A stretch of 63,879 nt of DNA, counting the filler, from Stramenopiles sp. TOSAG23-6 (taxonomy: Eukaryota), in NCBI GenBank assembly GCA_900128565.1. It is 3 parts of 3 records of this genome, joined end to end, with 100 filler letters (N's around TTAATTAATTAA, not from the genome) between each part and the next. Parts side by side here need not be neighbours in the genome. Positions count along the whole stretch, not along the records: positions 1 to 22,740 come from LT636012.1; positions 22,841 to 45,285 come from LT636013.1; positions 45,386 to 63,879 come from LT636061.1. The stretch is one strand, 5' to 3'. This document shows positions 375 through 60,500 of this stretch, in pieces (within the stretch, counting starts at the first letter, position 1; the number at the start of each line of letters is the position of its first letter). The notes below the pieces were generated by a model. That model had not been told where the DNA came from. It did not search any database and worked only from the letters and a program-made list of their open reading frames with translations. The translations under genes and the position numbers were made by a program.

Positions 375-2399
375 TTTTTTTTTTTAAAAAAATTTTTTAC
401 CCTAAAAAAAAAAAAAAAAACAATTGAAGTTCCAAAATGTTTTTTTTTTTCCCTACATGATGATTTCAATTTTTTTTTTTTTTTTTTTTTTTTTTCGTAC
501 ACAATTTCATACCTAACAAAACCAAATCAATGTTTGAAATATTCTCCTATACTATATGTAAACATAACGAAAGAGTTCTACAACATAAGTGTGTTAAATG
601 TCCTATAGGCTCAACACGAAAAGCAGGTGATAATCCAACAGGTCAAAATACAAAATGTAAAAACGTTATATGTAAACAAAGAGAACATGTGATTAATCAT
701 GAATGTAAAAAGTGCAAAGAAGGATGTATGTTTTATTTATTTTTTTACAAAAAAATCGAATTTTTTTTTTTTATAAAAATTTTGTACCTAACGAGTTTTT
801 TCTTGAAATATTTTTCCAAAATACATGGGGTAGACCACTTGGTGATAAAGCGGTTGGTCCTGATACGTTTTGTTCCAAATTAAAATTTTGTAATTTAGAT
901 ATGTATGCTATACAAAATTTTGAATTCGATGATAATGATTCTCAAAATAGTGAAATAATTGAGACTTCATTTATTAAATATACACATTATGCTAAAGGTA
1001 CAGAGGATGGTGGTTCAATTTGTGTAAAATGTCCAAGACCAGATAAATCAGCAAAAAATGCTATTGTTACATGTACAACTGAATTTGATTCTAGAGTCTC
1101 TCAATGTCAACCTGGTCATTATATTGAAGGTGGTATTGAAGCTGATGCGTCGAATGATTCAAACAAGAATAAAAATGATTTGCATTTAGGTGCTCCAGAT
1201 GTTTGTTGGCCTTGTACACCTCCATCTGTATCCTCTGATGTTTGTCAAGAAGATGAATATGTATGTTTTATTTTTTTTTTTTACAAAAAAATCGAGTTTT
1301 TTTTTATAGTAAATTTTGTACCTAACGTTTTTTTTTTCAATTTCGAATTTATTTTTCCAAAATACATTTACCTCACTGCTCTGGAAAGGAACGCATGGAT
1401 GTTGGATGCTTACCATGTCCATCTATTTCACATGCGACACGTGTCAGTTGCTCAGGCAAACCTCCAAAACATTTTAATCAAAGGAAATCAAATACTATGT
1501 CTACAATGAATGTAATCCTATCTTCATGGGTTATTACTTGTGCAAAAAACTATCATAAATCTCAAGATGTATCAAAATGTATCAAAAATGAAACGATGAG
1601 TAGTGTAACTAATGATTCTATGGATGCAGCTATCATTGTAAATGACTCCAATACAAAAATATCAGACAAAAATACAAAAATATCAGACAAAAATACTGGG
1701 CAGAATACTACACAGGGTATGGATACTGAAAATTCATTTGTTGATCTACAAAGTGAAGCATGTATATTTTATTTTTTTTCAATTTCGAATTTATTTTTCG
1801 TACGAAATTTTGTACCTAACAAAAAACATTTTGAAATATTTTTCTAAAATACATTCACAAATGTTTTTGTTGAGCAACAAAGTGAAGCATTTGTAAATAT
1901 TTCTAGACGTTGGGAAATTGGGTATGAAAATATTAAAAAGTTAAGTGGCGATGAAGAAAATATTGTACGTTTTCAAAATTGAATTTTTTTTTTGAAATTA
2001 TTTTTTCATACGAAATTTTGTACCTAACAAAAAAACAAAAAAACAAAAAACAAATATTTTTTCACAAAACATCTTAAACTTGATGATTCTTTTTTCAGCA
2101 TGAAACAAACGATTGAAGAAGCTGCAGATTTACATAGAACATCAATGGAAAGAATTGTAGAATTAGAACAAATAATATTGAAAAAACAAATACATGTAAA
2201 TGAAGAGAATTCGTGTGATGCTATGCAAAAAGGACCGACATTGTTCCCACAATTCATAAATTCATTTTTGAATAAAGAGACAAAAGATTTTATAAATGAA
2301 ACTCCATTAAGTGTTTTAGCGGTTGCTATTGGAGTTGGTTTCAATGTAGCTTGGTCAATGACGAGTCTCTTATCTCTTGTCATGAAATCTTTCTGGTGA
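138..2399 (+). CDS. Cys-rich surface/membrane protein, 5'-partial, at least 6 exons
   Basis: Exons ~138-328, ~556-725, 827-1260, 1368-1761, 1855-1964, 2073-2399. Splicing restores the repeat register (CVKCPIGSTRKAGDNPTGQNTKC vs CKKCKEG|WGRPLGDKAVGPDTFC, both 23 aa) and a QSEAF repeat. Has a WC...WGYC motif (FN2-like, tentative) and a hydrophobic C-terminal segment. Confidence 0.75.
329..555 (+). other. Intron, family member; exact boundaries ambiguous
   Basis: Donors GTATGT at 329 or GTACGT at 333; TTCGTACACAATTTCATACCTAAC near 494-517; no AG near the 3' end, which falls at about 550-557. Confidence 0.55.
726..826 (+). other. GT-AT intron, 101 nt
   Basis: GGAT|GTATGT...TTTTGTACCTAAC...CCAAAATACAT|GG; removal restores the Cys repeat register. 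Confidence 0.85.
1261..1367 (+). other. GT-AT intron, 107 nt
   Basis: TAT|GTATGT...TTTTGTACCTAAC...CCAAAATACAT|TTA; phase 0 joins CQEDEY|LPHCSG. Confidence 0.8.
1762..1854 (+). other. GT-AT intron, 93 nt
   Basis: GCAT|GTATAT...TTCGTACGAAATTTTGTACCTAAC...CTAAAATACAT|TC; restores QSEAF, matching a second QSEAF downstream. Confidence 0.85.
1965..2072 (+). other. GT-AT intron, 108 nt
   Basis: ATT|GTACGT...TTTTGTACCTAAC...TTCACAAAACAT|CTT; phase 0; cannot be redrawn as AT-AC. Confidence 0.8.
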
Positions 2400-2520
2400 G
2401 TATTTTGTTAAAAGAGGATGAAAAATAAATTAAATTTAAATTTTTTTTTTTTTTTTTTTTTTAACAAAAAAATTTCATCGAGTTTACTACAGATTTATTG
2501 TATATAAAGGACCAGGTTCT

Positions 2521-16920: not shown

Positions 16921-19900
16921 ATGACTGCGACTTCACTACATGAACGTTTAAGTATTATTGCTTCCCAGTTTGAGGAATTACGCAAACAAGACATTGCAAT
17001 ACGCGATCGTGAAATAGCTGAATTGAAAGAAAAGTTACAAACTTTGGAAAAAAAAGAAAGGGAAAATAAAGAATTACGGGAGGAGAACGTAAGTCTCAAG
17101 CAACAAGTGAGCCATTCAAATGTTGCAATAGAGAAAATGCTATCTACTCACAAAACTGATGTAACTAAACTACGGGATGAACTCCTTAATCTACGCTCGA
17201 AATTACAAGGTAATTCTATCAATGCTATTGATGTTGAGGGGGAACTAAAATCCGTTCAATCAAAGACAGAACAAGTTCTTGTATCTGTGAAAACACCCAT
17301 CGAAAAATTCATCAATACTGTAGAAAATACATGCCCCAATGCAAATATATCTAAAGGCGTGAATATAAATTATGCAAAACCTCGGGGGACATTCCAGGAA
17401 AAACCTATTCTTGAACATAAAGTTTCTGAACATGCAACAATCAATTCTAGTTACACAACAAAAGCATCTAGCAAAGCTGCAGAAGAATCGTTTGATAGAG
17501 AGTCAACCATCTTACCTAGTTCAAAGTCAAATGAAGTTGAAGACAAAAACGTGTCCAAAAATGAAACCGTTGAAGAAGATCATTCTCTAAATGTACAAAA
17601 ACAGGAAATGTTAATGTTTGCTGCAGAACAAGGTCTTGTATGTTTTTCAATTTTTTTCGTACGAAATTTTGTACCTAACGATATTTTTTTTTCGAGAAAT
17701 GTCAAAATATTTTCATCATGAATTTCAATTTCTTTTTCGTCGAAAATTTTTGTTCCTCACGAAAAAATTTCCATAATATTTTTACACAATACATGTCGGT
17801 GTTGTGAAAAAAATATTAGAACCAAAAATTGATACAGAAAATGAAGAGGACATGAAAGAGACGATAAACTTGGCTTTTAAACACGCATGTACGCTTTCAT
17901 CATTTAAAAAAAAAAAAAAAAAAAAAATATTTCGTACGAAATTTTGTACCTAACAAAAAAATTTAATTTTTTTTTGAAATATTTTTTTATAATACATGCA
18001 GTCATGGTCATACTGATGTCAGTTTGTATTTATTAAGCATTGGTGCATCTATTCAATCCACAAATGATTTTGGACAGAATGGACTTCATCTTGCTGCGGG
18101 GAGTGGTTCAAAAGATTTGGTAAAAAAATTTCTTGATCGAGGTATGTTTTATTTTTTTTCAATTTCAAATTTATTTTTTTCGTACGAAATTTCGTACCTA
18201 ACAAATTTTACAGTTTTTTTTTTCACAACACAGGGGCTGATATTGAAAGTAAAGATTGCGATGGCTTAACACCAATGGCATATGCAGCATTACACGATCA
18301 ATCGGATTGTTTAGAATTATTACTTTTTGCTGGTAGTGACACTGAAATACTTGTCTATCGCCCAAAATCAAAGGAAATAGCAAATATAAATATAGGAGAA
18401 CTTTCCAAATCTAAAAAAAATAAAAAAAATGAAAAAAATAAAAAAAATGAAAAAAATAAAAAAAATGAAAAAAATGAGATGATCGAAGAAGAAGATAGTA
18501 CAGCAAATGATATAGATGTTTCGGAACAGTCCCAACCAGTTCCAATTGTAGATGCATGTTTATTCCGTGAATCCAAAGCGTGTATTGAGGTACTACAGAA
18601 TAAGAAAATATTATTTTGGAATTCGTGTACTCGTGGAAATTTAACGTATAATATCGGCAATCATCATGCTGCATTGACACTGTTCAAAAAGGCGCTTCAG
18701 CTTACAATGGACAAAACATTAAATATTCCTGTCAAAGATATTTCTACGATTCATTATAACTGTGCTCGAGCAGCCATGCGCTTATCGAAACATGTTCTTG
18801 CTGTTACACACTGCGATCAAGCAATAGCTTTAAAAGAAACATTTTTCAAAGCGGTTAAACTTCGCGCAGAGAATTTCATGGAACTTCACGATTTTAAAAA
18901 AGCTGTCAAAGATTACGAAAATTTGCTACGGTTACTCCCTGGTGTAGGTTTGTCTGGTGCTTCTTCACCTCCAAGTGAATCTCGTAGCAAACATGCAAGT
19001 GTTTCACCTCCTAATATTCGGAATGGAAACTCCAAAGCAAAGTTAGAAGCTGCTTTGCAAAATGCAAAAGCATTGCAAAATTTAAGTCATTATTCACTAC
19101 TTAACATTAATGAAAAAGCAGATGCTGCAACCATTCGAAAAGCCTATCGGAAAATGTGTTTAAAATGGCATCCTGACAAAAATGGCGGCTCCGATGAAAC
19201 TAGATATAGATCTAGTTTAATGTTTCAAAGAATTAGTAAAGCATATGATGAGTTAAATGATTCTTATAAAAGAATAATGTACGATTTAGAACTCAAAAAA
19301 CAAAAATTGGAAACTGAAAAAAAATGTTTATATAGATCTGCATTTTCAAGGAATGGACTAAGTGGAAGTAAAACTTCAACACCAACAATATTTAGAAGTA
19401 GAAGACGATCGTCAACAGTGAAATCACCACAAAGTAGTATGAAACGTGATAGTAATACACCTGTTGCAAACAATCAAACTAAAAACACATTTTTTTCAAG
19501 TCCTGATTCTGATGCAAATATTAATTTAAAGACAGAAAAACGAACTCCAAAGCATCCAAGATTCAGCGCAACCAGAAGTTCAAGTAAACAATATATGAAA
19601 ACTCCAAAGACACCAAAGGATAGAAATAGTTCTTCATTTTCCACTGGGAAAACTCGGCGTTCATACGTTTCTTCTTCTCAAGCTTCTGAATTTCCTGGGC
19701 ATATTTCGTCCACATCAAACCACTCAGCTACAAATGGTCAATATGTAGGAAAGAGTCCATTAAGTGGTATGTACGACAGACTCAAACGTAAACAAGAGAC
19801 AAGTGAAAGTTTCTCAAATGAAGAATATAATTCAAAAAATGTTCCAATGAATTTACGATTTGATAGTGATAATGGGAATAATACCAGTAGTTCTAATTCA

Positions 19901-21259: not shown

Positions 21260-21277
21260 TTAGGGTTAGGGTTTAGG
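21260..21277 (+). repeat. Interstitial telomere-like tract
   Basis: TTAGGGTTAGGGTTTAGG between divergent genes. Confidence 0.8.
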
Positions 21278-21431: not shown

Positions 21432-22686
21432 ATGTATAACATCAGTTTCGTAATGATGCTTGTTTTTCTCTTGTTTGCGTCGTTTTGTTCAGTGGAGGCT
21501 GAGTCTTTTGACGGTTTTAACCTTCGATTGAATTGGAAGCCAAGTGTAGGTCAGTGGTTTATAAAAGACAGTGTGAGTGACAATTCTCAGTTTGAGTGTC
21601 CTAAAAAAGCATTCTCATGGAATTATTCTGAATCATCACATATTTTACGAGAAAGTGGCCCTCACACTAATGTAGAGGATTCTGATAGTATTGTAGTCGA
21701 CTACTTGGAGAAAAATAGTGAATATATCACTGTAGTTGGTGATGTATTAAAGCCAAATTCGCATAGCTCTTGTAATGATCGTTACTACTGGGAGATGACA
21801 ATTCTTGAGAATGAATTACATAATGTTTCAGACATAAAATTTGGATTATTGCAGGCGCAACAATTTACAGGTTCCACGGGTTCCCTTGCGTCACTGTTTA
21901 CCTCATGCCAAAAGTCAAAAGTAAATGTTGATTCACTTTTTCTTCCAAAGAAGATATTAGAAATTGCTGAAAAATATTCACAGTCAAGAGATCAATACAC
22001 ATCAAACAGTGATTCGTTTGATAGATTTGGTATACAGAGAATCCCTGTAAGTCGTTCATGGGAAGTAGATTTTCTTGGTGACAAATTGAATTGGTTTGTT
22101 GATGGCGTTTTTAGTCTACCTAATGGATTTCGTAATGAAACAGATAACATTTATTGGACAGATAAAATTGAACATTGGGGTTCTTTTGGTTCTTGGGTAT
22201 CTGAGGAAAAATCTATATTTGATATAAGTACTTCAAAAAAGGATAAAAGTGGTGTTGAGAATGAAAATGAAAACGACAGTGAGAATATTGTGAAAAAACT
22301 TACTTTTGGTGTTGTATTGGACTTTGGTTGTACTAACCCTAACCCTAAAACATCCGAGATATTTCCCGCAACTCTTTCATTTTGGAACAAGGCTAAGAAT
22401 GAGACACTCATTATGAATATTGATCCATTTCAACGTCTTCAGAATGATACAAAAAATAATACAAAAAATAATACAAAAAATGATACAAAAAATGATACAA
22501 AAAATAATACAAAAAATAATATAAAAAATAATACAAAAACATTTCAAAGTTCACTAAAGGGCATCGTAAATTCTTTTTCATTATCAGGGCGCGTATTTAC
22601 TTCAGCAGAGCTCGCCTCTTTTGGTCCAGGTTTTCCGCTTGAACCGTTACGCGTTGCTGTTACGTATTCGAATCCTTTTGATGGTT
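21432..22686 (+). CDS. Signal-peptide protein with SPRY/B30.2-like motifs (exon ending before the gap)
   Basis: RYYWEMTI...IKFGL and TFGVVLDF...TLSFWN resemble SPRY strands; exon ends GGT T|GTACGT. Confidence 0.55.
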
Positions 22687-22894
22687 GTACGTTTTCATTT
22701 CAATTTCGAATTTATTTTTTTTTCGTACGAAATTTTGTACNNNNNNNNNNNNNNNNNNNNNNNNNNNNNNNNNNNNNNNNNNNNTTAATTAATTAANNNN
22801 NNNNNNNNNNNNNNNNNNNNNNNNNNNNNNNNNNNNNNNNTACGAAATTTTGTACCTAACGATTTTTTTTTTGAAATATTTTTCCAAAATACAT
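22687..22894 (+). other. GT...AT family intron sequence split by an assembly gap
   Basis: GTACGT...TTCGTACGAAATTTTGTAC | gap | TACGAAATTTTGTACCTAAC...CCAAAATACAT; both sides are phase 1. Confidence 0.6.
22741..22840. other. Assembly gap with artificial TTAATTAATTAA linker
   Basis: N runs flanking a six-frame stop linker. Confidence 0.95.
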
Positions 22895-25138
22895 CACCTG
22901 CTGACTTTCACGGAAGCCCTCATTCATTTTCAACACCACAACAACCACCACGTTCTACATTTTTAAACTTTGATAATGAAGTTGGTGAAAGTATTGCAGA
23001 TTCATTGAAGGATATTTCTCCGGTTGTTTTACCTAATGAATGTCAAACTCCAATGCACAAAAAAATGATGTCTTCTACGAAATATACAGATAATGATAAT
23101 AATAATAATGATTTAATGAATACTATTACATCAATAAATGATGATGTTACAAGTGATGTAACATTAAAAGATGATTGTGAAGAATTTGTACGACGTGCAA
23201 AGTCAATACTTCTTTTAGCAGAACATTCCCAAGGTAAAAAATCTGGTAATTTAGAACCAGACGATTTAAATAAACTAGCAAAACAATTAAAGAATCTTGT
23301 AGTTGAGAGACTTGCTGACTCGGAACCTGTATTTCGTGTTGCAAACGAGTTAAAACTAATGACAAGAGATTTTGGGTTTTCTCTGCAATGTAGGTTCCCA
23401 TTACTTACTTGGAATTTATTTCATTTTCTGAAGAATTTCGTACCTAACAAATTTCAAATTTGGCATATTTTTTTACAATGTAGGTGCGACTGATATGGAA
23501 GCATTACTATACAACAGTCTTTGGAGAGAAAATAAAGATTCAATAGATAAAAAAGATTCGAATAATGAATCTGTATTGTGTCAAGCAAGGCAAATTGGTC
23601 TTCAAAAACTTATTGAAAAATCTCGTAGCACAAGTGAAGTGATAACTGCAATTTCGGATGTCTCATTTAATAGTACTACTTCACTTGGAAGTGATAATAA
23701 ATCACTAAATCTGATAACATCAATAAGCAACAATAGTTATACGCATAGCATTGCTGATGGTGGTATGGATAATGGATCACCAGCTGTAGTACATGCACAC
23801 TCTTTATTAAATCAAGGTATAATTTCAATAGAAGAATTTGAAGAATTGGTAGAGAAAGATAGGAAATTTAGGTTGAAAGAAACAGTTGATATTGTTCAAC
23901 AACAACAGACTAATAGAATAACACCAGCAGAATTCAAAGAACTTATTGAAGCTCATAAAAACACAACAAATGAAGTACCTATGCACATACTTGAACAAAA
24001 GGAATCAGTGAATACTAAAGAGACCACTAAAGATTTTTCATCAATGAGTGCTTCATTTATGAATAACTCCGATAGTGATTCTATTTCAATGACTCCACCT
24101 TCAATCAAAAATGATGGTACAGTAATTCTTCATAATCCTGCATTGGTTGTATCGAATGCAACACTTTCTAAACTCAGAAGAGTTTTGAAACGAAAACTGA
24201 AATTAATTAAGCAGCGAATTAAAGCAAAAATCATGAGACAAAGTAGAAAAAAACAAACTAAAGAATCATTGCGACACACATCAACAGTGGAAACGACCAA
24301 AACTTCACCTGAAAGTGAATGCTTCACTTTATTTGATGAAATACAAAAACATCAACTTCGAGCATTATTAGATAATCAAAAGTTTTTTGAATTATCTTGT
24401 CAAAATATAGATTATTATCGTGGTGATTATTTGAATTTACGAGGAGATGAAACTGTAAAACAAACCTTAGTACGTGGTGGATCTATGCCACATGAAACTA
24501 TATTCTTTAGTTCCGTCATTGAACGAGTTCAGCCACAGTCGTGGTGGAGCAATGGAAGAACACAAAGAATTCTTGTTATAACTGAGGCTGCTGTGTATGA
24601 ATGTACTACATCTACTGGACAATCATCTATATCTGCTGCTGTTTGGGGAAGTATTACAAAATCTCCAAGAAAATCTCTACTGGAAAGAACACCAAGTAAA
24701 TTATTTGCACCTAACTCTGATTCCTTACCTCAAATTGGATCACTTTTATTATCAAGTAATAAGACAAAGCTTAGCACCACAACATCTATATTATCTGGAA
24801 ATAGTAGTAGCAGTTCTAGTAGTTGTCCACAAACTTTTATGACAATAGGAAAAGTTATAAAGAGATTTCCATTAGAAAGTATAGGTTGTATATCTCTAAG
24901 TAAACTTATAGTTGGTGGAGCGTTCTGTCTAATCATACCTAGTGAATATGATGTTCTTTTTGACACTGTGAGACGAACAGAAATCGTATCTTGGATGATT
25001 CATTTATACGAAATCCGTACGGGTCAGCCATTGATATGTAATTTTATGGAAAGCATGTTATTAACATTGGAAGACGGGCAGACAATGACTACTTATTTCG
25101 ATGAAACAGCTGGGACTGTACGAATGTTAAAATTATAA
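22895..25138 (+). CDS. Protein with C-terminal myosin-I TH1-like domain (exons 22895-23389, 23484-25138)
   Basis: ETIFFSSVIER...QRILVITEAAVY...KRFPLESIGCISLS...FCLIIPSEYDVLF...RTEIV...LY...G..L...F matches the Myosin_TH1 pattern; no motor domain seen. Confidence 0.65.
23390..23483 (+). other. GT-AG intron, degenerate family member, 94 nt
   Basis: CAAT|GTAGGT...AATTTCGTACCTAAC...TTACAATGTAG|GT; phase 1 joins the two ORFs. Confidence 0.7.
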
Positions 25139-32520: not shown

Positions 32521-32527
32521 TTTATTG

Positions 32528-33698
32528 TCACTTTTTGTATTTTTTTGTATTTTTTGTATTTTTTGTATCTTTTGTATTTTTTGTATTTTTTGTATTTTTT
32601 GTATTTATATCTTTATGTATAGCAATATGGTTAGGGTTAGTGCTATCTTTAAGGGCATATGTCGTAGAAGCTAATGTAGAAGGCACATCATCAGGTTCTG
32701 TTTTACAAAACCAAGAATGTAATTTCAGTGCTCTTATACCGTCATTTGGAAAATTAGGTAAACCTTCCGTATTAATGTTCCACCAATTTATTAATTTAGC
32801 TCCTCTTGGAGCACCAAACAATCGCGCACTCTTTACAAGATCAAACTTTTTAATCCAAATTTGGTTGATACCTATCCCACTACTAGATGAAGTTGGTAAA
32901 CGAAATTTGTCTAATAAATAACACGGTGGGCCATCTTTCAACATTCGCGACTTCGTTTCAGAGCAAGTGGCTTTATTGAATTTATATAAAAAATTATCCC
33001 ACTGACTACGTTGTAAATTTTGAAGACATTCTAAACATAAATACGATGGTCTCCAATATATTTCTCCAATACACTTATACTCACAATAAGTATCATCTGT
33101 AATTTGCTTGTAACAATCTTTGCATACTGAAGATGCTGTTGGCTTTTGGTGACGTACTAACAACTCTGGACGCTCATGTATTGTGAAATTGTTTTTTTGT
33201 AATTTGTTTTGTTAGGTACAAAATTTCGTACGAAAAATAAATTCGAAATTGAAAAAAAATACAACATACATATTTTCGTATTCGTCTTGTTGCTTCTTTT
33301 CGTTGCTTACGGAACTCAAACTTCCTTTGAGATTTTTCTTTTTTTGTCATCTTTAGCAACACACCATCACAGTATACGCGTGGACGCCAAGCTCTATGAA
33401 GTGGTGAATGTCTTTCACGACGTTTCATTTCTACTTCGTCTTTTCGCAAGACGATTTCTAAGTCAGCTTTTGTAATTGGTACTTTGTCAGGTGGTATACC
33501 ATCTTTTCCTCGATCTGGTCTGAGTTCATGAGCTGTCGCATCATCCTGACCTTTTATTTCTAATGAATCAGCATCCCAATATAGAACACGATATATATTG
33601 GTCACTGGATCAACGAAGAGAACTCTACAACCCCACCACCGTCCACTAAGAAAATAAAAAGCGTCATCACCTTGAGAAAAACAAGGGTTGGTATTCAT
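32528..33698 (-). CDS. Hypothetical protein, 2 exons, Cys-containing C-terminal domain
   Basis: Exons 33698-33270 and 33175-32528 join in phase 0 (RKY|ERPEL); CKDC...YCEY...W.PS..C.EC motif. Confidence 0.7.
33176..33269 (-). other. GT-AT intron, 94 nt
   Basis: Minus strand TAT|GTATGT...CAATTTCGAATTTATTTTTCGTACGAAATTTTGTACCTAAC...TTCACAATACAT|GAG. Confidence 0.85.
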
Positions 33699-35335: not shown

Positions 35336-35337
35336 AA

Positions 35338-37525: not shown

Positions 37526-38619
37526 TTACAACTGTTTAGACTTTTTTGAATAAACATTTTCACCCTTTTCATCATGGATGCCATTATTATTTTGTCCAGA
37601 TGAAAGAGATTTTATTGTGTTATTCGTAGATAAACTTCTTTTTTTTCCCAAAATTTGGTCAACTGAAGAATTACTAGAATGAGTGGGTACAATATTTAAT
37701 ATATCTGCACCTTTCATTGGACCTCCAGATGTATTCATATTATGTGTTGCTTCTAGTCCTTTGAAGTATTTCACAGTTTTAACCCGTAACTCTAACGTTG
37801 CATCTTCGTCACAAACAACGCAAGCTCGTGGATGCATTTGAAGCATTGAAACAGTCCACATGTATTTTGGAAAAATATTTCAAAAAAAATCGTTAGGTAC
37901 ACAATTTCGTACGAAAAATAAATTCGAAATTGAAAAAAAAATAAAACATACATGTGACTAATACCTTCCTCAATGCATTTATACATCGCATACGCTTTGT
38001 GTGCACCTGTTATAATAATCAATACTTCGCGTGAATCCATTACAGTACCAACGCCTACTGTAAGCGCCATTTTGGGTACTTTCGAAATGTCATTGTCAAA
38101 AAACCTAGAATTGGCAACTATTGTGTCATAAGCTAATGTTTTCACACGTGTACGTGATGTCAAGCTTGAACCCGGTTCATTGAATGCAATATGCCCATCT
38201 GGCCCAATACCACCCAAGAATAATTCAATACCCCCGTATTGAAATATTTTTTCTTCATATAAACGGCACTCTTCGACCAAATCATTTGCGTTGCCATTCA
38301 GCATGTGAACGTTGTTTGGATCAATGTCCACGTGTTTGAATAAGTTATTCCACATAAAAGCATGGTATGATTCTGGATGATCTTCGGCGATACCGACGTA
38401 TTCATCCATATTGAATGTTGCAACATATTTGAAGCTTAATTCCCCCGCGTTATAAAAATTTACAAGTTGTTTGTATACTGGGATGGGAGATGAGCCAGTT
38501 GGCAACCCAAGAACAAAAAGATTATTGGCACTTGGTGCGTACTCTGTGATACGTTTTTGAACATATTTCGCAACCCAAAGTCCAGCATCATCCTTAGATT
38601 CCTTGATAATAATACGCAT
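37526..38619 (-). CDS. GNPDA: Glucosamine-6-phosphate deaminase, 2 exons
   Basis: [34 protein letters not shown]; exons 38619-37952 and 37859-37526 restore conserved IEEG.SHMWTVS..Q.HP...[20 protein letters not shown]. Confidence 0.95.
37860..37951 (-). other. GT-AT intron, 92 nt, containing no AG dinucleotide
   Basis: Minus strand CACAT|GTATGT...TTCGTACGAAATTGTGTACCTAAC...CCAAAATACAT|GTGG; exact removal is needed for HMWTVS. Confidence 0.92.
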
Positions 38620-40005: not shown

Positions 40006-40430
40006 ACTTCTCAATTTCGAATTTATTTTGACATAAACTTCACTTTTTTCTTTGGTAAGTTTTACTATCAACTTCTAAGAAATCCTTTTTTTCATCTGAG
40101 TGATTCAAAAGTGTTTTATTTTAATATAGATGAAGTATTCGTGAAATAAAGATAATTTACTCGTTCATTTTTTGTTTGTTTGTATGTGGAATAAAGTTAT
40201 TTTTACTCTTTCAAATCAAACTTTTCGATTTCGAATCAAAATTCTTTTTTTTTTCTTGCTCTTTTTCGTGTCACATCACATCGTCAAAAAAATAGAGGAG
40301 CCAACTTCGAATCAAATTCTAATCTCTCAAAAATCGCAAAAGTACAATAAAATATATATTTTTAAATATCTCGTCTCTGTCCACCAAAGCCTATTTTACT
40401 CGATTAAAGGGAACTAATTAAAGGAAACCA

Positions 40431-41809
40431 ATGTTCAAGTGGGCTAAATATATCACCACGCTGTGCTTTCTTTGGATGATGCCAGTTAAGAGTAATAAAT
40501 ACGCTGTTGCTAAGATCGAGTCCTCCGATGGTTCAGCCACTGTTAGTGGTTTCGTTCAGTTTATCCAAATCGCAGACGGTGACGTACTTATGAGTTATTC
40601 TATTACAGGTTTAACACCTGGGAAACACGGTATTCATGTACATCAAAATGGCGATTGCACGGACACAAAAACACTAAAAACATTAGGATATCATTTTATA
40701 CCAATAATGTCTTGTGATCCTGAAGGTGACAAAGACAAGTATGAAGCCTGCAAGAACGTCAGTTTTCACGGTATGCCACCTGAAGTGAAGAGACAATCTG
40801 GTGATATGGGTAATATTGATGTGTCTGCTCAAGGTGTAGCAACGGGCAGTGTCCTACTCGGGCAGTCAAAGCTAAGTCTCACTGATCAATTTTTATCAAT
40901 AATCGGTCGATCCGTTGTAATTCACGCAGGAGAAGATAAGGGCAGCAGTGCACAACCTTGGGGTGATGCTGGTGGGCATATTTGGTATTTATCCAAAGAT
41001 TTTTTCTTTTTACACTATATTAGTATATACTTGTTTTTACTCAGTTTAACTACATTTGATATATCATATACATGACAGCGGAAGCATACGGGATTATTGG
41101 AATAGCTAATCCAGCCATGCTTGTTAATCTTCGTTTACCATATGAACCAAATAAGTGCACAGCAAACAATGCTGCTGATCCAACTAAACCAACTGCCGGG
41201 TGTGCTCCAATTAATCCTGCTCCAAAAACAAACACTGCAATAGCACCGTCGCTTCCTCATGTTCAAAAGGTTGTTTGCAACTTCACTGGTCCATATATCA
41301 AAGGAAAAGCAATTATTTATAAACCAGATTTTTCGAAAGCAGAAGCTACGCTCCAGTCCGAATTTACTGTCACAGAAAAATGTCCTGATGGTTGTAAAAC
41401 ATTATCCTGGCATTTTCATATGTTTGGAGATACACCTTCATTTGACGAATCTAAACCAGATACTTCTCAAAGTATGGGTCCAGTATTTACTTCAGAAACA
41501 TTAGTACTTGATACAATTTCAAGGACAGCAAATTCAAGTGACGTCTATTTTATTGACCAATTTACACCCAAAAGTCTTCTGGATCACGTTGGAATTACAC
41601 TGACGCTACACTCGCCAGCAGGTGGACCACCATATCATCCAACAGTGGCAGCTGCGGTCTGCGGAATTGCTTCTCCAGATACATGCATTGATAAAGATGG
41701 CGGTTGTTCCAAAGCAGTACTAATTCATGGCAATCCTAGTACAACACAAAGCTTAAGTATAGTGTTTATGGTATTCATTATGTCTTCTTCTTTATGGTGT
41801 CAGCAGTAA
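40431..41809 (+). CDS. Secreted/anchored Cu/Zn-SOD-like protein with two SOD-fold domains, 2 exons
   Basis: Signal peptide; GLTPGKHGIHVH, GDMGNI, IIGRSVVIH; second domain WHFH...LTLH...AVCGI; hydrophobic C-terminus; intron at about 40972-41078. Confidence 0.75.
40972..41078 (+). other. Intron, boundaries ambiguous
   Basis: AT-rich interruption between WGDAG and EAYGIIG; possible ends ATACAT (41073) or GACAG (41078); lacks the full family motif. Confidence 0.45.
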
Positions 41810-45285: not shown

Positions 45286-45385
45286 NNNNNNNNNNNNNNN
45301 NNNNNNNNNNNNNNNNNNNNNNNNNNNNNTTAATTAATTAANNNNNNNNNNNNNNNNNNNNNNNNNNNNNNNNNNNNNNNNNNNN
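45286..45385. other. Assembly gap with artificial TTAATTAATTAA linker
   Basis: N runs flanking a six-frame stop linker. Confidence 0.95.
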
Positions 45386-45476
45386 TTTCAAAAAAAAATC
45401 TAAAAAAATTGTTAGGTACAAAATTTCGTACGAAAAAAAAAATTTAAATTTTCAAAAAAAAAAAAAAAAAACATAC
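45386..45476 (-). other. Family intron (5' part), 3' end lost in the gap
   Basis: Minus strand GAT|GTATGT...TTCGTACGAAATTTTGTACCTAAC...TTGAAA. Confidence 0.75.
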
Positions 45477-52261: not shown

Positions 52262-54328
52262 ATGTCCCTTATATTTCAAATACAAAAATTATTGAATCGC
52301 CAATGTCGCTTTTCATCTTCCTGTGGTCAAATTTTAGCTTCTCTCAACAGTTCAAAATTAGAAATCAGAAAAACACAGGCACCGAAACCAAAACCAACAA
52401 ACATCAACTTGGAATTCGGAAAAGTTTTCACAGATCACATGTTAGAAATCGATTGGAATGCTGATACAGGATGGCATACCCCACTCATTAAACCATATGG
52501 TGATATGGCGATATCACCAGCTGCGAGTGCACTACATTATGGTTTACAATGTTTTGAGGGAATGAAAGCTTACATCGATCCTTCAGGGAACATTCGTCTG
52601 TTTCGTCCTGAGAAAAATATGACAAGATTGAGTACTTCAATGAAACGATTAAATATGCCATCATTTGATGAATCAGAGTTTCTTGAATGCATCAAAGAAC
52701 TTTTAAGAGTTGATAAAGACTGGATCCCTAAAGAAAAAGGATTTTCCTTATATATTAGACCAACAGCTATATCTTTGCACTGTATGTTTTTTTCATCATT
52801 TTTTTCATCATTTTTTTTTCATAGAGAATTTCATACCTAACAAATTTAAAATTTTTTTTGTATCATTTTTTTTCATTGAGAATTTCATACCTAACAAAGT
52901 TCAAATTGTACAATATTATTTTCAATATATGTACGCTTGGTGTCACAACAGTGCGTTTATATTATTGATTTCAAATATATTCTGCTAATATTTTGTAACA
53001 CTTGGAATTGTTTTGTATTCAAAACAAAATTGAAATTAAATTTTACATATTTTTGTTTCGTACCTAACAAAACAATTCATGTTTTAGAATATTCTTTCAC
53101 AATACACTCTTTACATACAAAACTGTTTTGTATAATGTGCCCAGTAGGACCATATTTTACTGATGGAATAAAACCAGTGCACTTGCTAGCTGATGAACGA
53201 AATGTGCGTGCTTGGCCTGGTGGAACTGGTGATGTAAAAATTGGGGGTAATTATGCTTGTATGTTTTTTATGTTGATGTCAACATCATTTAAAAAAAAAA
53301 ATTTTCATTTAAATTTTTTTTTTAATATATGGATTTTTATATTGTATTATAATATACAACTAATGAATTATATACTATGAAAATATTTTGTCACTAGTAA
53401 AGCCACTATTTCACCACAAACGAAAGCAACTGAAGATGGATATTCGCAAATACTTTGGTTATTTGGTGATGATCATCAAGTGACTGAAGTGGGTGTAATG
53501 TACGTTTTTTTTTTTTTTTCAAGTTTTTTTTTTGTAGTATATTTTGTACCTAACTAAAAAAAAAATAAAAAATAAAAAAATCACAATACATGAATTTTTT
53601 TGTTTTATGGGAAAAAAAAGATGGTTCAGGAAAAGAGTTAATTACAGCACCTTTAGATGGTACCATGTAAGTTTTAAACCCTAACCCTAATATAATTTCA
53701 TATGTTTTTGTATAGAAAATTTTTGTACCCTTTTCTTTAAAAAAAAACAAAAAAAACAAAAAAATCTCATATAAACATTCCAAAATAAAACATATTTTTT
53801 TCAATATATATTACCGGGTGTCACCAGAAGTTCAGTGATTGAACTTGCACGCTCTATAGGTGACTTTGACGTCACTGAACGAATATTTAATATGGCAGAA
53901 TTAACTGAAGCGATAAACGATGATCGTGTCATTGAAGCGTTTGGTTGTGGTACTGCAGCTGTTGTTAGTCCAGTCAAAGCGATCACTTATAAAGATAAAA
54001 TGTTTTCAATACCTACAGGAGATGATGAAACTATGGGACACTTTTCTAAATTTGTTTTAGAAAAGTTAACTGCAATTCAATATGTAAGTCAAGTATTCTG
54101 AATTTTCAAATGTGTTTTTTTTTTTTTTTGAAAATATTTTTTGAAATGTATTATTTTTTGAAATGTATTATTTACCAAATATTATTTTTTAATAGAAAAT
54201 CAAAAGGTTTCGTGTACTTCTTTGTATCCACTGTATAATATTATTTACCAAATATTTTTTTTAAATCTTGTTTATCAGTATATGGGAATGATAAAGGTCC
54301 TGATGGTTGGTCTGTTGTTGTCAAGTAA
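52262..54328 (+). CDS. BCAT: Branched-chain amino acid aminotransferase, 7 exons
   Basis: Exons 52262-52781, 52931-52950, 53108-53258, 53403-53499, 53592-53666, 53810-54083, 54284-54328 give [85 protein letters not shown]...W. Confidence 0.93.
52782..52930 (+). other. GT-AT intron, 149 nt
   Basis: CACT|GTATGT...GAGAATTTCATACCTAAC (two copies)...TTCAATATAT|GT. Confidence 0.85.
52951..53107 (+). other. GT-AC intron, 157 nt
   Basis: ACA|GTGCGT...TTTCGTACCTAAC...TTCACAATACAC|TCT; gives the expected LGV-to-PVGPY spacing. Confidence 0.75.
53259..53402 (+). other. Canonical GT-AG intron, 144 nt
   Basis: GCTT|GTATGT...CAACTAAT...TAAAG|CC; restores NYASTISPQ; lacks GTACCTAAC. Confidence 0.8.
53500..53591 (+). 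other. GT-AT intron, 92 nt
   Basis: GTAAT|GTACGT...TTTTGTACCTAAC...TCACAATACAT|GAAT; restores TEVGVMNFF. Confidence 0.9.
53667..53809 (+). other. GT-AT intron, 143 nt
   Basis: ACCAT|GTAAGT...TTTTGTACCC...TTCAATATAT|ATTA; restores DGTILPGVTR. Confidence 0.88.
54084..54283 (+). other. GT-AT intron, 200 nt
   Basis: TAT|GTAAGT...TCAGTATAT|GGG; restores IQYG...W; the nearby CAG is out of frame. Confidence 0.8.
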
Positions 54329-54553
54329 ACATTTAGTATAGAATTCATAAAAAATGGTAGATATGAAGTTATTCTCAAAATAAAAGTAGCAAGTGAATAT
54401 TTTCTTTGAACACGAAATATTTTTTTTTATAAAGTTTGACAAAAACATCGAAAAAAATGCAAAAAAAATGAAAAATTGCGAAAAGTTTGTGTGTGACTTG
54501 ACAAGTGTTTCCTTAATTTAATAGTACCTCTTATTATATATTGCATAAATAGA

Positions 54554-57500
54554 ATGACAAAATTATCTATATTACTTTTCATGCTTTTTTCGTATATGAT
54601 GAATGCAACTAGTACTGTGAGTCCGAATATATTTTTCGTTCATACGAGTAAAGAGACTGTACCATCTGATATTATTCTCTGTAGTGTTGAAAGTGCATTA
54701 GTTCAATACCCAAATGCCTCTGTTCATATTTTCTCAAACTCATGGGAATTTGATGCGTTTCATCACCTTATAGGTAATAAAGTAACTCATAGTCAACGCA
54801 TTCAGGTCCGTCGATTCAAGTATGAAATTGAATTTCTTGGAACGCCATTTTCAGATTGGTTTGCTTCAGGGCTTTGGCGTGATGGTTTTTTGGAGCATAA
54901 TTTATCAGACGCTCTTCGCTTATCAATATTATACAAGTATGGTGGTTCATACTTTGATACAGACATATTACATGTACGTAGTTTATCATTATTTAGTAAT
55001 GTGCTCACTTTGGAAACAAACGTTAATATAAATAATGCTGTATTACGTTTTTCAAAAGGACATTGGTTTGTTTGGGAACTCATGACAAAATTTGTACAAC
55101 GTCACTCAGGACAAAAATGGGGAAGTGGAGGTCCAAAATTAGTGACTTATTTATGGAAAGAACATCGTCATATCATTGATAATACAAAAGATGACGAATG
55201 GGTTACTCTTCCACCTGATGCATTTTATCCTATTTCATTTATGTTTTCATTATGAATGTCGAAATTTAAAATTTTCAATTATGACTGTCGAAATTTGAAA
55301 TTTCGTTTTTTTATTTTACATTTCGTACCTAACAAATTTTGAATGTCCATTTCTTTTTTTACATTACATGGGATGCAACAAATGTTTTATTTGTACAACC
55401 AAAATCATATAATGATGAAAGAAAAAAAATTGATAAAGAAAAAAAAAATAATTTAAATAATTTAAATAATTTAAATGATGATAATGATGAATTGATTGCG
55501 TTTGAAAAATATGAAATAATAATGAAATCTACATATGGCTTACATTTGTGGAACAGTTTAACACATGGCCAGTTTCCATATACAAAAGTCTCTTCATTGT
55601 TAGGTATTGTAATGAAACAGGTTTGTCCGAAAACATCCTATACTTTTTTTTCTCAACAAATTCGAAATTCGTCAAGTACAAAATTTTCAATGAAAAAAAT
55701 AAAACAATTTGAATATAAAACAAAAATTATTGAACCTGTTGTTGGAAAACAATACGTTGGTGCTGTCATTAATGTATTAATTAAAGTAGTTCAAATATTA
55801 AAAATCGATGAAGAAAGAAATTCAAAAAATTCAAAAAAGGAAAATAATCAAAAGAATCAAAAGAATACTACTCTTTGCATTTCAGTGGGTACTGAGTACA
55901 CGAAATGCATACCTTTGTCGCAAAATCAACAAACACAAATGATTTCTTTACAAATATATGATTTGTTACCGGGTCACCATGTTTGTATAGTTTGGGTTGA
56001 GACTGAAAAAAAAATTATTCTAAGTGAAAAAAGCTTTGCTGCATTTAATTTTAATTTTCATTCTGTTGCAAAAAATAGAATAAATACAATAAAAAATGAT
56101 ACAATAAAAAATGATACAATAAACAATGATACAATAAACAATGATACAATAAAAAATAATACACTAAATACAAGATCTATTCAATATCATAAAAAGTATG
56201 AATTATGTCGATTTTTATCATTATGTGATTCATTAGGCTCAACACATTCATATTTATATTGGAATGAAAGTGGAAATGAATTTAGTTCTAGAATATTAGA
56301 TGTACGTTATTGTATATCATTTTTTAATATCATTTTTTAACATCATTTATTTTCAATGTAAATATATTGTTTATATTGTTTATATTGTTTATATCTAACA
56401 AAATATAATGTTTCAAATACTTTCCAAATATATATAAAACATGTCAAACATGTAATCATCTATGTCATATAGAAGAAACATATAAACATAATAAAGATGA
56501 ATTAGAATCTTTTGCTAATCGTCAACGTCGGATTCGATCTTTTCATAAATTAGAAATTGAAAATTTTATGTCTTTATCCATACCTAGTAACAATTGGCAA
56601 TGTGAACGTATCATTCAAAATCTAGATACAAAATCGTCTACTAAAAAAATAGAGACAAAAAATGAAATTGAAATAAATCTTTTTTTTATCGGTTATATTG
56701 ATGATTTATCATGTACAACACCAAAAATAATAACTGCAATAGTACCTCAAAATGTAACATCGACAACGAATTTATTAGGTAATAAAATTAATACAGATTC
56801 AGGACATCTAAATGATTATAATTGTAATGATTTTGATACTTGTGCTAATGAAATTCCAAAATATACTATGCAAAACAGGAAAGAATTTGAGTATTATATA
56901 CGAAATAATGCTTTTTTTAATCAAAAAGATCAAAACAATAATTTTAAATTTTGTGCAGATGTTTGGATGGTAAGTCACTCTGAATTGATTGATGTTTTTA
57001 ATATATTTGAATTAAGAGAAATGTTGACCACCACCTTCAATACTACCAATATTGATACTGAAAGTCAACAACAACGAAAAAAGACGAAATTTGGTAAAAA
57101 AAAAATCAGTTCAGTGGCAACATTTGAATTTGATTTGTGGAAAAGTATTGAGTATGTTTTTATCTTTTATTTTTTTTGTTTTTATCTTTTATTTTCGAGT
57201 ATTGTATAGTATGTATATCATTCATGTGTTTTTTCAAATGTTTCAAATATATTTCACAATAAAACATTGATACAACATTTGATACACATAAAAAAAGACA
57301 AATGGCAGATCTAGTCACACAAAATATTTTTGAGATATTAACCGACAATGGAATTTTATGTATTTTACATGAACATCCAACTATTATACATTGGATTGAA
57401 ACTGTCATTTTAGATCATTCATTTGTTATTGTAAAAGACATTGATGATGAATCAGTGATGAAATGTTCTGTTTTAGTAAATTCACTATATGATGAAAGCT

Positions 57501-60500
57501 CAGCTCAATGGGGGGTCACAATGAAGAAAATATTGAATACACGAAATCCTTTATTTTCTACAACGTTTATAAAAAAAACAAAACAAACAAAACAGACAAA
57601 ACAAACAAAAATTGGTCGTTATCATAAACGATTGAAAATACATAATCATCAAAATATTATTTTGAATACTACTACAACAATACCCGATACAAAAAATAAT
57701 GAAACTCAAGTTTTTGTAATCAATCTTGATCGACGACCTGACAGATGGATTGAAATGTCAAATAAATTACATGAAAATAATTTTAGTATGAAAAATGTCA
57801 TACGAATTTCTGCAGTAGATGGACATTTGCTCGATATGACGTCATCACGAATTCAAAAACTGTTTCAATCTCAAAATAAACATAATAAAAGATGGACTGC
57901 GCCCTATGGAGGACATAAAATGAATCGAGGTGCAATTGGTTGTGCTTTGAGTCACTATATATTATGGAATACATTGTCTTCTATTTCACCTCAACTACCA
58001 AATATTGGTACAGATAGTTTTTGGTTAGTTTTGGAAGATGATATTTATTTTTCACCACAATTTTCATCTCGTTGGAATGAAATTATAGAAAAGGTGAAAA
58101 ATGATTCGTCTTGGGGACTTTTGTATTTAGGGTTTACAGACTATCATGTAAGTCTTTTTTAGTATGAATTTTAATACGTTTTTTAGTATGAATTTTAATA
58201 CGTTTTTTAGTATGAATTTTAATTTTTGTTTTTGATACAATGTTTATTTATTATTTTTACAATTTTGACTTTTTGTTTTTGTTTATTTGAAATTGTTTTT
58301 CATGTACAATTTCATACCTAACACATTTCAAATTTAATATATATATTAATTATTACATGGAAAATCGAATATTTATGGTGATACAAATGCGTATCATAAC
58401 TTTCCATATATAAAACAATTTAGTGATGTTCCAAGAAGTACTGGCGGTGGAACATTTGGATATGCGATACGTCAAAACGCTGCTGAAATGTTAGTTCAAT
58501 CTGCGAACAAGAATGTAAGTTTTATAATTTACATGTTTTATTATTTCAAAAAAAAAAATAGTATTATTATGATTTAAAAAAATAGAATAGTATATTATTA
58601 TTATTTCAAACAATATAGAATAGTATATATATATATTCTAAAAAACAACAAATTTGACATATTCTTTTTACCTACATGGGATAATAGATCCAATTGATTT
58701 TTTTATGATTGAACATTTCGGTGATATAAAATCTTATATTTGTACTCCTCCACTAGTAACTGCAGATTGGATACTTCAAAAACCAAATACTGATAGCGAT
58801 ATTTCAAGCAATGATGGTGGTGAAGCACAAAAAAAGGAGAATCCTACATCTACAAAAACAAATGAGTCTATCAAAATCAACATAGAGAAAAGAAAAAATA
58901 CACGAAATATTCAACTTGAAATGCAATATTTAGAAACTTTATTAGACTTTATACCACCTGAAAATGAAATTGCTGTAGCATTTCAATATACAAATTATCA
59001 AAATGAACAATTGAATAATTTTCCAATACAATTAAAAATTAAACAACCACAAAATGGTGATTATACAGGGATAAATTTTATTGTCAAGGCAGATGTAGGT
59101 TTTGAATTTCAAATTTATTTTTTGAATACGATATTTCATACATATATTTTTTTTAATATTTTCTACATTTTCAATGTTTACTTTGATTTTTTTGAATACG
59201 ATATTTTGTTTGTTTTGTACAAAATAATATACCAAACAAAAAAAATACACGAAATATCCCATCAATATACATATAATAATAAAAAATCAAGAGGAATCTT
59301 TTCAATATTTACCGAGAAATTGGCAGGAATTGGCTAGAGTTTGCATTGGTGTTGAAAGTCCATTTTTTGCTCCATCTCGTAGCAAATTTTTGGGATGTAG
59401 GTTTATTTTTTTTTTGTTGAATTTCAATTTTTTTGTTTTTCCTTTGAAAATTCTATGAAATTTTATTATGATGTTTTGTTCTAAATTTCAAATTTTTGGA
59501 ATATTTTCAACTGTATTTGTACAAAACTGAATTTACCTGTTTTAACTGTCACTAGCATGCCATATGGTCGATCAATGGTTCGATTTTGGATGCAATTAGA
59601 ATTTGAAGATGTGGTACGTTTGTACAATTAAATTTATTAATTTTATTTTTTTTTGTCATGAAAAATTTGTACCTAACAAAAAAAAATTGACTGTAAAATA
59701 TTTTTCCAAAATGTATAATAACGTATATGCAGCTACAATTCAACAAGTTTCGGCTATATCTTCTGTATATGTTCATGTGACACCACTCCACAATCATCGT
59801 TTGGCTGTAGAAGTAGATACAATACAAATTCGAAATTCGTTTGGTACAAAAGTACTAGCAAAGAACCCTAACCCTATTGAATCGAAATCGAATTTGAGTA
59901 GTATAAAACAAAAAAAAAAGGAAAAAACATCTTCAAATATTTTTATGAATAAGACATGTCTTGATGGGTTACCTGAAAAGTTGCAGTATAGTTACATTCT
60001 AGCAAAACAAAAATTTCAAACACAAGAAAACCCTAACCCTAGTTTTGCAATTGGCATTTTAATGAATAGAGGTGAAAAATCATTTAGAGATGCACTGGAG
60101 TCTTGGTATATCTCTGGATTATTAGATATGGCATCACAACGCTTATTATTCATACAAGAATACAATGGAAAATATGATACGCGTCTTTTACATTTACATA
60201 GACCTTTTCATGAATATAAAATTACTGTTGTATCTGTTGACAAACCTGAAAATGCTACACAAATTGGAATTTCTGGTGGAATTTTGAAATTATTAAAGAC
60301 TGTTGATTTGAGTATTGACTCATTTTTATTTTTAGAAGAAGATTGGATAATACACCCAATTGTATCAAATAATTTGGTACAAAAACAAATTGAAACTTCG
60401 TTACAATTGTTACAAAGTGGTAAAAGTGACGTCATTCGGCTTCGCAATAGAGAATTACCGGGTAACCCACATTGTTCCTCTGTGTGGAAAGGATACGAAA

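Follow-up and report, generated by a model that had tools for sequence, protein, structure and literature searches.

Can the last base of an intron, a G that ranks among the most conserved bases of eukaryotic genes, give way to another base across the genes of a lineage? The question is raised by a stretch of DNA of 63,879 nucleotides (nt) from Stramenopiles sp. TOSAG23-6 (GenBank assembly GCA_900128565.1), which we refer to in its entirety as the window. The 26 complete introns delimited here end in AT (22 introns), AG (three) or AC (one), and all counts given below refer to these introns in one window of one genome. Exons upstream of the introns also tend to end in AT and exons downstream to begin with G, such that junctions commonly read AT/G, where the slash marks the splice junction. 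We see an even chance that the pattern reflects a lineage-wide shift of both cleavage sites from AG/G to AT/G.

Introns were curated from reading frames, repeat-family alignment and homology. In addition to the 26 complete introns, this yielded one copy with a donor only (45476, minus strand, its 3′ end lost in a run of N) and one with an acceptor only (ending at 137 and starting before base 1). Homology places seven introns, of which six interrupt a branched-chain aminotransferase gene and the seventh a glucosamine-6-phosphate deaminase gene; 11 are placed by repeat-family alignment together with the frame, and eight by continuity of the frame alone. Blind pairing of donors and acceptors by continuity of open reading frames (ORFs) proved too permissive in AT-rich DNA and was dropped in favor of curation. 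One donor was set at 56312 (TATT/GTATAT) rather than at 56302 (AGAT/GTACGT), because the latter breaks the frame with an AT acceptor. A possible intron of 50 nt at 41023-41072 (GT...CA or AG...AC), behind a Cu/Zn superoxide dismutase domain, lacks a homology anchor and was left out of the counts; the frame shift at this position could reflect a different kind of intron or a frameshift introduced by sequencing.

At their 5′ ends, the 26 introns carry G in 25, T in 26, A in 25, any base at the fourth position, then G in 24, T in 25, T in 22 and T in 21. They begin GTANGTTT and follow the GTRNGT pattern of U2-type introns, the intron at 55239, which starts with TT, being the exception. The motif [GA]TA[CT]CTAAC occurs 25 times in the window, 22 times within short AT-rich segments that break same-strand reading frames, and represents a branch site of the (T)ACCTAAC type, in agreement with the U2-type pattern YTRAY or TACTAAC. 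A YTRAY motif whose branch A is 32-45 nt away from the 3′ end is present in 19 introns. The YAG of a U2-type 3′ site is not kept, AG being found in three of 26. Positions -5 to -1 instead hold T in 20, A in 22, C or T in 25, A in 26 and T in 22 introns (consensus T-A-Y-A-T), with an invariant A at -2 and a last base that is mostly T and in a few cases G or C. These segments thus read as ordinary U2-type spliceosomal introns in all respects but the 3′ site, which alone appears to depart from the U2-type pattern, and in one direction.

Homology fixes five of the AT ends and the single AC end. The aminotransferase gene (52262-54340) has a full-length paralog, P0121, in the same gene set. When its seven exons are joined, including one of only 20 nt, the frame is kept and the product has 393 residues compared with 394 for P0121; the alignment is interrupted once, by a one-residue gap close to the N terminus, and runs without gaps across all six junctions, and some stretches are identical to P0121 across two junctions. 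The registers of 52951-53107 (GT-AC) and 53259-53402 (GT-AG) are fixed because the borders carry no repeated base, and the other four introns of this gene end in AT once the GT start is fixed. One of the four, 54084-54283, passes over a CAG located 5 nt upstream of its AT end. For the deaminase gene the reference is PDB chain 1ne7_A, whose residues 1-222 are matched by the full codons of exon 1 and residues 224-264 by those of exon 2, with exactly one split codon, AT/G, remaining for the junction.

The public coding sequence (CDS) P0122, to which exon 1 of the aminotransferase gene is 100% identical, agrees with our spliced model at the one AG intron and departs from it at all five non-AG introns. 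It contains an unalignable insert around introns 1 and 2, a substituted segment with a two-residue gap at intron 4, a six-residue deletion at intron 5 and a read-through into the last intron. The annotators of P0122 worked without these junctions, and other gene models of this assembly may share its mis-splicing. Of the 23 non-AG introns, 15 are free of any AG in the stretch from -45 to +11 around the 3′ end, and 16 offer no in-frame, stop-free AG alternative between -80 and +45. The latter count had its phase mis-set for 52951 and 53667, which follow short exons; both rest on homology instead.

The exon side of the junction is biased as well. Measured against 29 ORFs that extend from stop to stop over 250 codons or more (44.6 kb in total), upstream exons end in AT at 16 of 27 donors, far above the codon background of 11.3% before GT (binomial p = 2.6e-9). 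Exon position -1 is T at 23 of 27 donors (33% before GT, p = 3.4e-8) and position -2 is A at 17 of 27 (35% background, p = 0.003), whereas downstream exons begin with G in 15 of 27 cases, compared with 18.4% overall (p = 1.7e-5) and 23.8% after AT (p = 4e-4). A first-pass annotation of this DNA had proposed that AT/G takes the place of AG/G at exon junctions, having counted exonic AT at 17 of 26 donors and T at 22 of 26 and noted that G often follows. The statistical core of that proposal is upheld by the present counts, and the difference in exonic AT comes mainly from donor 56312.

This bias is not tied to any one group of introns. Exonic AT precedes seven of 12 introns of the main repeat family described below, three of five in a second family and five of nine others, and T stands at exon -1 in 10 of 12, four of five and eight of nine, respectively. 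Unrelated introns that start with GTAAGT or GTAGGT therefore show exonic AT as often as the family does (5/9 versus 7/12), and the exon-side bias is real and general, extending beyond the main family. At four homology-fixed junctions, AT lies within the codon of a residue that the paralog keeps (Met, Ile, Tyr and His), such as Met in GVM/N, Ile in GT/IL and Tyr in IQY/G. Met and Ile codons force AT, and in the Tyr and His codons T is a synonymous third base. AT probably predates the intron at the Met and Ile codons, and would do so at the deaminase junction if homologs carry Met there. If AT is the older at these junctions, the bias would mark where introns can land and be tolerated.

About half of the introns belong to one introner-like family. 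Its members, 14 of the 28 introns and intron parts and distributed over eight genes, share the sequence GTAYGTTTT..TTCAATTTCGAATTTATTTTTCGTACGAAATTTTGTACCTAAC..TTGAAATATTTTTCCAAAATACAT. Complete copies without a sequence gap are 92-157 nt long and have identities to the consensus of 0.70-0.90 (11 copies aligned). In the alignment, similarity runs from G+1 to the last T and the flanks are unrelated; every splice signal is therefore contained within the copy itself. Likeness that recurs across unrelated genes and is confined to the intron is what defines introners. A 10-nt palindrome, TTCGTACGAA, occurs nine times where 0.07 are expected, always within main-family introns. All 14 family copies lie in genes and in the sense direction, and a BLAST search of nine introns against the window gave no intergenic or antisense match other than low-complexity ones. 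Matches outside curated introns in the same search comprise 27 nt at 26750 and a 19-nt module at 40011-40029 in a 3′ flank. The two runs of N, at 22741-22840 and 45286-45385, are assembly joins bordered by TTAATTAATTAA linkers, and each touches a main-family copy (22687-22894 and 45386-45476), which is consistent with a high copy number and says no more than that.

The second family consists of five introns that share the core ..GAATTTC[GA]TACCTAACAAATTT... In two introns, 17638-17794 of the main family and 52782-52930 of the second, the branch-site module is duplicated internally, which leaves each with two candidate branch sites. An intron-family word, AATTTCGAATTT, is also found in antisense orientation in two glycosyltransferase exons (55658-55669 and 59826-59837), where both copies read QIRNS in similar 30-nt contexts, and again at 40013-40024, just after a stop codon; these occurrences outside introns could be a motif in its own right or fragments that became exonised. 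The GT-AG intron 23390-23483 has the 10-nt word CAATGTAGGT at each end (23386-23395 and 23476-23485), with the two copies 90 nt apart. We rejected it as a target duplication: the 90-nt spacing breaks the frame, and removal that keeps the frame takes out 94 nt.

How exon and intron came to end alike is harder to decide, because AT is its own reverse complement and the introns with AT at both places cannot separate a target duplication, an inverted repeat and RNA pairing. None of the three is established, and only the few non-AT cases discriminate. A transposon birth would have an AT or ATG target duplicated, with the second AT copy serving as acceptor and the spliceosome merely tolerating A-T. 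This origin has precedents in Micromonas and Fritillaria borealis in the available part of PMC11282704, and it fits the family copy at 18142, which, as had been noted in the first pass, ends in AG and follows an exonic AG. It also fits the four copies nearest the consensus (0.84-0.90), all of which have AT before and AT at the end (chance about 0.1), the copies with TT, TG or AG before the intron having identities of 0.70-0.79. Direct repeats are longer in the true pairs of boundaries than in shuffled ones (permutation p = 0.015 at the upstream boundary, 0.05 at both), and the two assembly gaps fall inside family copies, as a high-copy repeat would lead one to expect. Nonetheless, the dinucleotides at exon end and intron end are identical in 15 of 26 introns where 12.8 are expected (p = 0.055), and the last bases in 21 where 18.9 are expected (p = 0.07). 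Among 13 family donors, those at 1965, 17638 and 22687 have TT and that at 59614 has TG, all before introns that end in AT; 52951 ends in AC after an exonic CA, and 53259 ends in AG after an exonic TT; and introns outside the family show exonic AT just as often. The terminal inverted repeat amounts at most to GTAT...ATAC, 6 bp with the exonic AT counted; none of the 14 copies is intergenic or antisense, though we estimate that about a fifth of the window is intergenic and transposons would be expected in both orientations and outside genes; and no transposase was seen in the window. We regard this birth as possible but doubtful, and the GTAT...ATAC element duplicating an AT target that the first-pass annotation had suggested is not shown by these data. 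The covariation check proposed with it, applied to the 26 introns, gave the marginal identity and the longer direct repeats just described. Its view that duplication is not needed for splicing is supported; the two exceptions it had named, TG at 59614 and CA at 52951, are both real, except that the latter ends in AC by homology rather than in AT.

Pairing of the intron ends in the RNA is a less probable account still, and one that we consider improbable. Here the 3′ UACAU would pair with the AU/GUA junction, exon -1 U with the invariant -2 A and exon -2 A with the last U, and the helix would place the 3′ cleavage, as a mild version of what is seen in euglenids or Amoebophrya. The consensus AT/GTA(T) is indeed the reverse complement of the consensus (A)TACAT, and exon -1 T (22/26) is firmer than exon -2 A (16/26), paralleling intron -2 A (26/26) and -1 T (22/26). 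The reverse-complementary junctions AT/GTAT...ATACAT pointed out earlier are perfect over 6 bp in five of 26 introns (726, 1261, 1762, 33269 and 37951). A terminal helix has a pair probability above 0.5 in seven of 25 introns and is present in the minimum-energy fold of three of five family introns that were folded, yet it has only 5-6 AU-rich pairs, and the fold energies of the five (z versus shuffles of -2.78, -2.04, -0.65, +0.72 and +1.25) beat the shuffles in two. The internal TTTCAA/TTGAAA pairing that had been proposed appears in the minimum-energy fold of 37860-37951 and not clearly in the other four. Covariation in the non-AT cases is not complementary, with neither 18142 (AG and AG) nor 52951 (CA and AC) pairing; U6 and U5 are expected to hold on to the 5′ site during catalysis; and the combination of non-GT ends with a stable end helix that marks euglenid-type introns is not found, with GT in 25 of 26 introns and a weak helix. 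Duplication and end pairing are both compatible with a shift of the cleavage sites, and each requires a spliceosome that accepts A-T at the 3′ end. Introns of the minor spliceosome (U12-like) with variable 3′ terminal bases are very unlikely. The U12-type consensus has RTATCCTT at the 5′ site and a branch site TCCTTAAC located 10-26 nt from the 3′ end; the introns here share with it a strongly conserved branch motif, CCTAAC, that resembles the U12 branch CCTTAAC. They have GTANGT at the 5′ site rather than RTATCCTT, and place the branch 32-45 nt from the end as opposed to roughly 10-26 nt. AT, AC and AG ends on GT starts are found, and U12-type introns with non-canonical ends are on record (PMC1557818, as far as the available part goes); in the window, AT-ending introns are the majority class and not a rarity. 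It is similarly hard to credit that the introns are artefacts, whether wrong gene models, decaying genes or segments that are never removed. Such a view could point to junctions called from sequence only, an apparently gapped single-cell draft, one TT start and the absence of these junctions from public annotation. It is difficult to reconcile with seven exons, including the 20-nt one, that stay in frame and free of gaps at junctions relative to the paralog, with a deaminase junction that fits to the residue, and with a public model that becomes unalignable, loses six residues or is truncated exactly where non-AG sites were avoided.

With these alternatives in view, we return to the shift of both cleavage sites. 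In this reading, GU-AU would be the normal intron type in place of GU-AG, G and C would remain acceptable as the last base, and the exon-end consensus would have moved in step from AG/ to AU/, a proposal about which we are evenly divided. Both cleavage sites would then read AU/G, the AU belonging to the exon and the G to the intron at the first step and the reverse at the second, and recognition of the two would have shifted together in this lineage. In spliceosome structures, the -2 A pairs with the branch adenosine and the last intron base contacts G+1. The invariant -2 A would fit the former contact, and the shift could have come about through contacts made in the catalytic core between G+1 and the last intron base, now U with G and C tolerated. 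The preference on the exon side might arise from altered contacts of U1 or U5 with the exon end, the other cause put forward in the first-pass annotation, or from the same pocket. The consensus sequences at exon end and intron end could thus be coupled, either through birth of the intron with a copy of the exon end or through one catalytic pocket that reads both. New family copies would survive only at AT/G sites, and a target duplication would not be required. That a self-contained intron family of about 100 nt spreads on this altered rule, and is missed by standard gene finders, strikes us as no less plausible than the contrary.

Several points weigh against this reading. That shared recognition couples the two sites is an inferred step, and textbook splicing reads the exon-end AG, by U1 pairing, and the intron-end AG by different parts. 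Splicing at these junctions is read from the DNA alone, and in a single window; the AT acceptors of the eight frame-only introns (of 26) were chosen among in-frame sites, which is partly circular. A search for transcript-derived proteins with exon 1 and the paralog as queries gave no near-identical fragment besides the public CDS. At 33269, an in-frame AG lies 3 nt downstream of the AT acceptor. The intron at 55239 starts with TT, which a normal first step would not accept; it has TTATGT where its second-family relatives have GTATGT, a base-calling error is possible, and the same mRNA would result if the intron were read in an AT-AC register starting two bases earlier. The longer direct repeats, the consensus-nearest copies and the AG-flanked copy at 18142 discussed above also count, weakly, on this side. 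Two metatranscriptome runs containing about 5% of sampled window words are on record, together with several DNA runs, and no inference is drawn from them. The 20-nt family core gave no matches in metagenome contigs, and a search for related loci with the paralog returned 80, among them no close relative (highest identity 54%); these loci were not used.

The window is AT-rich (G+C of 26-38% per 4-kb window) and dense in genes, and uninterrupted ORFs of 2349, 1166 and 735 codons adjoin a few genes that are split into many pieces. The top protein matches carry the label eukprot GSMAST32, with a DEAD-box ORF matching one at 82% identity; because the best matches bear this label, the window is taken to be nuclear DNA of a MAST-3-like marine stramenopile for which a public gene set exists. 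The source assembly appears to be a gapped single-cell draft. A scan with Rfam at E values up to 1 detected no small nuclear RNA in the window, with one chance-level match only, and no transfer RNA genes were found in the window. Exon 1 of a multi-domain glycosyltransferase gene (54554-55237) has matches to Gly_transf_sug and Gb3_synth, along with a weak one (E 3e-5) to the catalytic glycosyltransferase domain TcdA_TcdB, which is probably a general DXD-fold likeness. A two-unit telomere-like motif, AACCCTAACCCTA, occurs in 10 copies (eight exact) on both strands where 0.02 are expected, at 21261, 22335, 25955, 31979, 32626, 35339, 44930, 53677, 59864 and 60029. Some copies lie between genes, some are in frame within exons, where they encode NPNP, and one is in an intron; the motif may have a regulatory role like that of a telo-box, or may be a small insertion. 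Short A-rich tandem repeats of ATACAAAAA-like units are found in frame in exons of four unrelated genes (1650-1696, 22443-22539, 32519-32606, 56084-56168 and 57571-57610), encode for example NTKNNTKN, and look as if one microsatellite-like insert had been dispersed across coding sequence.

Table 1. Introns and intron parts of the window. Slashes mark splice junctions; "main" and "second" denote the two repeat families.
Label	Position	Strand	Type	Boundary sequences	Basis and remarks
A0	1..137	+	main, 3′ part, 5′ end before base 1	AATACAT/GTA	core and branch motif at 51-74; BLAST to copies
A1	329..555	+		GTGT/GTATGT...ATACTAT/ATG	ORF continuity only; other registers possible
A2	726..826	+	main	GGAT/GTATGT...AATACAT/GGG	family alignment and frame
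A3	1261..1367	+	main	ATAT/GTATGT...AATACAT/TTA	family alignment and frame
A4	1762..1854	+	main	GCAT/GTATAT...AATACAT/TCA	family alignment and frame; 0.90 identity to family consensus
A5	1965..2072	+	main	TATT/GTACGT...AAAACAT/CTT	family alignment and frame; no in-frame AG alternative
B1	17638..17794	+	main, internal partial duplication	TCTT/GTATGT...AATACAT/GTC	family alignment and frame; joined product reads as ankyrin repeat
B2	17889..17997	+	main	GCAT/GTACGC...AATACAT/GCA	family alignment and frame
B3	18142..18233	+	main, AG-ending after exonic AG	CGAG/GTATGT...ACACAG/GGG	family alignment and frame
C1	22687..22894	+	main, interrupted by N run 22741-22840	GGTT/GTACGT...AATACAT/CAC	family alignment and frame
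C2	23390..23483	+	second, GT-AG	CAAT/GTAGGT...AATGTAG/GTG	ORF only
D1	33176..33269	-	main	ATAT/GTATGT...AATACAT/GAG	family alignment and frame; in-frame AG 3 nt downstream
E1	37860..37951	-	main, glucosamine-6-phosphate deaminase gene	ACAT/GTATGT...AATACAT/GTG	homology to 1ne7_A
F1	45386..45476	-	main, 5′ part only, 3′ end lost in 45286-45385	AGAT/GTATGT...
G1	52782..52930	+	second, duplicated branch module	CACT/GTATGT...ATATAT/GTA	gap-free spliced alignment to P0121
G2	52951..53107	+	second, GT-AC	AACA/GTGCGT...AATACAC/TCT	homology to P0121, register unambiguous
G3	53259..53402	+	non-family, GT-AG	GCTT/GTATGT...GTAAAG/CCA	homology; sole intron of the gene spliced alike in P0122
G4	53500..53591	+	main, within Met codon	TAAT/GTACGT...AATACAT/GAA	EVGVMNFFVLW identical in paralog
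G5	53667..53809	+	non-family	CCAT/GTAAGT...ATATAT/ATT	DGTILPGVTR identical in paralog
G6	54084..54283	+	non-family, skips CAG 5 nt upstream	ATAT/GTAAGT...GTATAT/GGG	homology; paralog stretch IQYGDEECPNGWSVVVK
H1	55239..55369	+	second, 5′ end TT	TCAT/TTATGT...TTACAT/GGG	Gb3_synth domain continues across
H2	56312..56442	+		TATT/GTATAT...AAACAT/GTC	ORF only
H3	57152..57267	+		TTGA/GTATGT...AAACAT/TGA	ORF only
H4	58148..58358	+	second	TCAT/GTAAGT...TTACAT/GGA	ORF only; Glyco_transf_25 domain upstream
H5	58515..58677	+		GAAT/GTAAGT...CTACAT/GGG	ORF only
H6	59095..59272	+		AGAT/GTAGGT...ATACAT/ATA	ORF only
H7	59397..59563	+	least certain acceptor	GGAT/GTAGGT...TGCCAT/ATG	ORF only; sole nearby in-frame AT/AG/AC end
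H8	59614..59716	+	main	TGTG/GTACGT...AATGTAT/AAT	family alignment and frame; CAG at 59732 out of frame

Fungal introner-like elements are near-identical introns of about 100 nt in unrelated genes that contain all signals, have GT-AG ends, lack a duplication or inverted repeat and occur in the sense direction only; an RNA-mediated spread has been proposed for them and is unproven. The main family resembles them in that the repeat unit is the intron and in its exclusive sense orientation, and differs from their GT-AG ends. The comparisons with other systems that follow refer to the available portions of the cited papers. Fritillaria borealis has AG-AC and AG-AT introns with an exonic TAC mirrored at the 3′ end and an origin from miniature inverted-repeat transposable elements (PMC11282704), and divergent U2AF paralogs bind its new 3′ ends (PMC11282704, PMC13326754). 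As in that organism, most introns in the window break the GT/AG rule, end in A plus a variable base and are recent and repetitive, and the exonic motif before the intron mirrors its 3′ end. Unlike those of F. borealis, with a 5′ AG, inverted repeats and a TAC duplication, the introns of the window have a canonical 5′ site, differ in the last base alone and show no convincing inverted repeat or duplication.

Introners of Micromonas co-opt their 3′ AG from the target duplication (PMC11282704), which is the model that the first-pass annotation drew on. The short repeats that make many introns and supply splice signals in Micromonas pusilla and Aureococcus anophagefferens are similar to those in the window, but have duplications of at least 3 bp, clear terminal inverted repeats and GT/GC-AG ends (PMC11282704, PMC7789003), whereas the window introns have GT-AT ends, complementarity of at most 6 bp and a 2-bp AT duplication that is indistinguishable from the consensus. 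Amoebophrya, whose introns are non-canonical in more than 60% of cases, is likewise a marine protist with repeated families and direct repeats over the boundaries; the portion consulted describes introns without preferred terminal dinucleotides, inverted-repeat hairpins of 8-20 nt and no U1 found (PMC7789003), unlike the one dominant GT-AT pattern, canonical 5′ site and yeast-like branch site seen here. Nonconventional introns of euglenids also have ends that can pair and repeats at their junctions, but they are without GT or a conserved branch site and need a stable end helix (PMC11282704, PMC4770533), compared with GT in 25 of 26 introns and a helix in seven of 25 in the window. A large introner survey, in the part available, accepts AG and AC as 3′ sites and checks unfamiliar ones against transcripts; it would probably have missed introns that end in AT. 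Our search of the literature on introners, GT-AT introns and MAST-3 splicing, which covered main texts and not supplements, returned no account of AT-ending stramenopile introns. The words 'splice' and 'canonical' have zero occurrences in the available text of PMC5778133, whose supplements, possibly dealing with gene prediction, lay outside the search. As read from the window, the introns differ from all these systems in keeping a textbook 5′ site and branch site with essentially one base changed.

If the AT/G rule is true of this organism, a free-living lineage that mostly uses a terminal U would amount to a natural mutant of 3′ site recognition in the second step of splicing. The likeness of the exon end AG/ to the intron end AG/ has long been noted, and their apparent joint change to AT/ makes proto-splice site, duplication and shared recognition directly testable as its sources. 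Introner surveys that start from annotated introns would miss the main family. Since the public CDS errs at each non-AG intron in the single gene that was checked, the gene sets, completeness scores and metabolic inferences available for these uncultured marine grazers may be biased at such introns.

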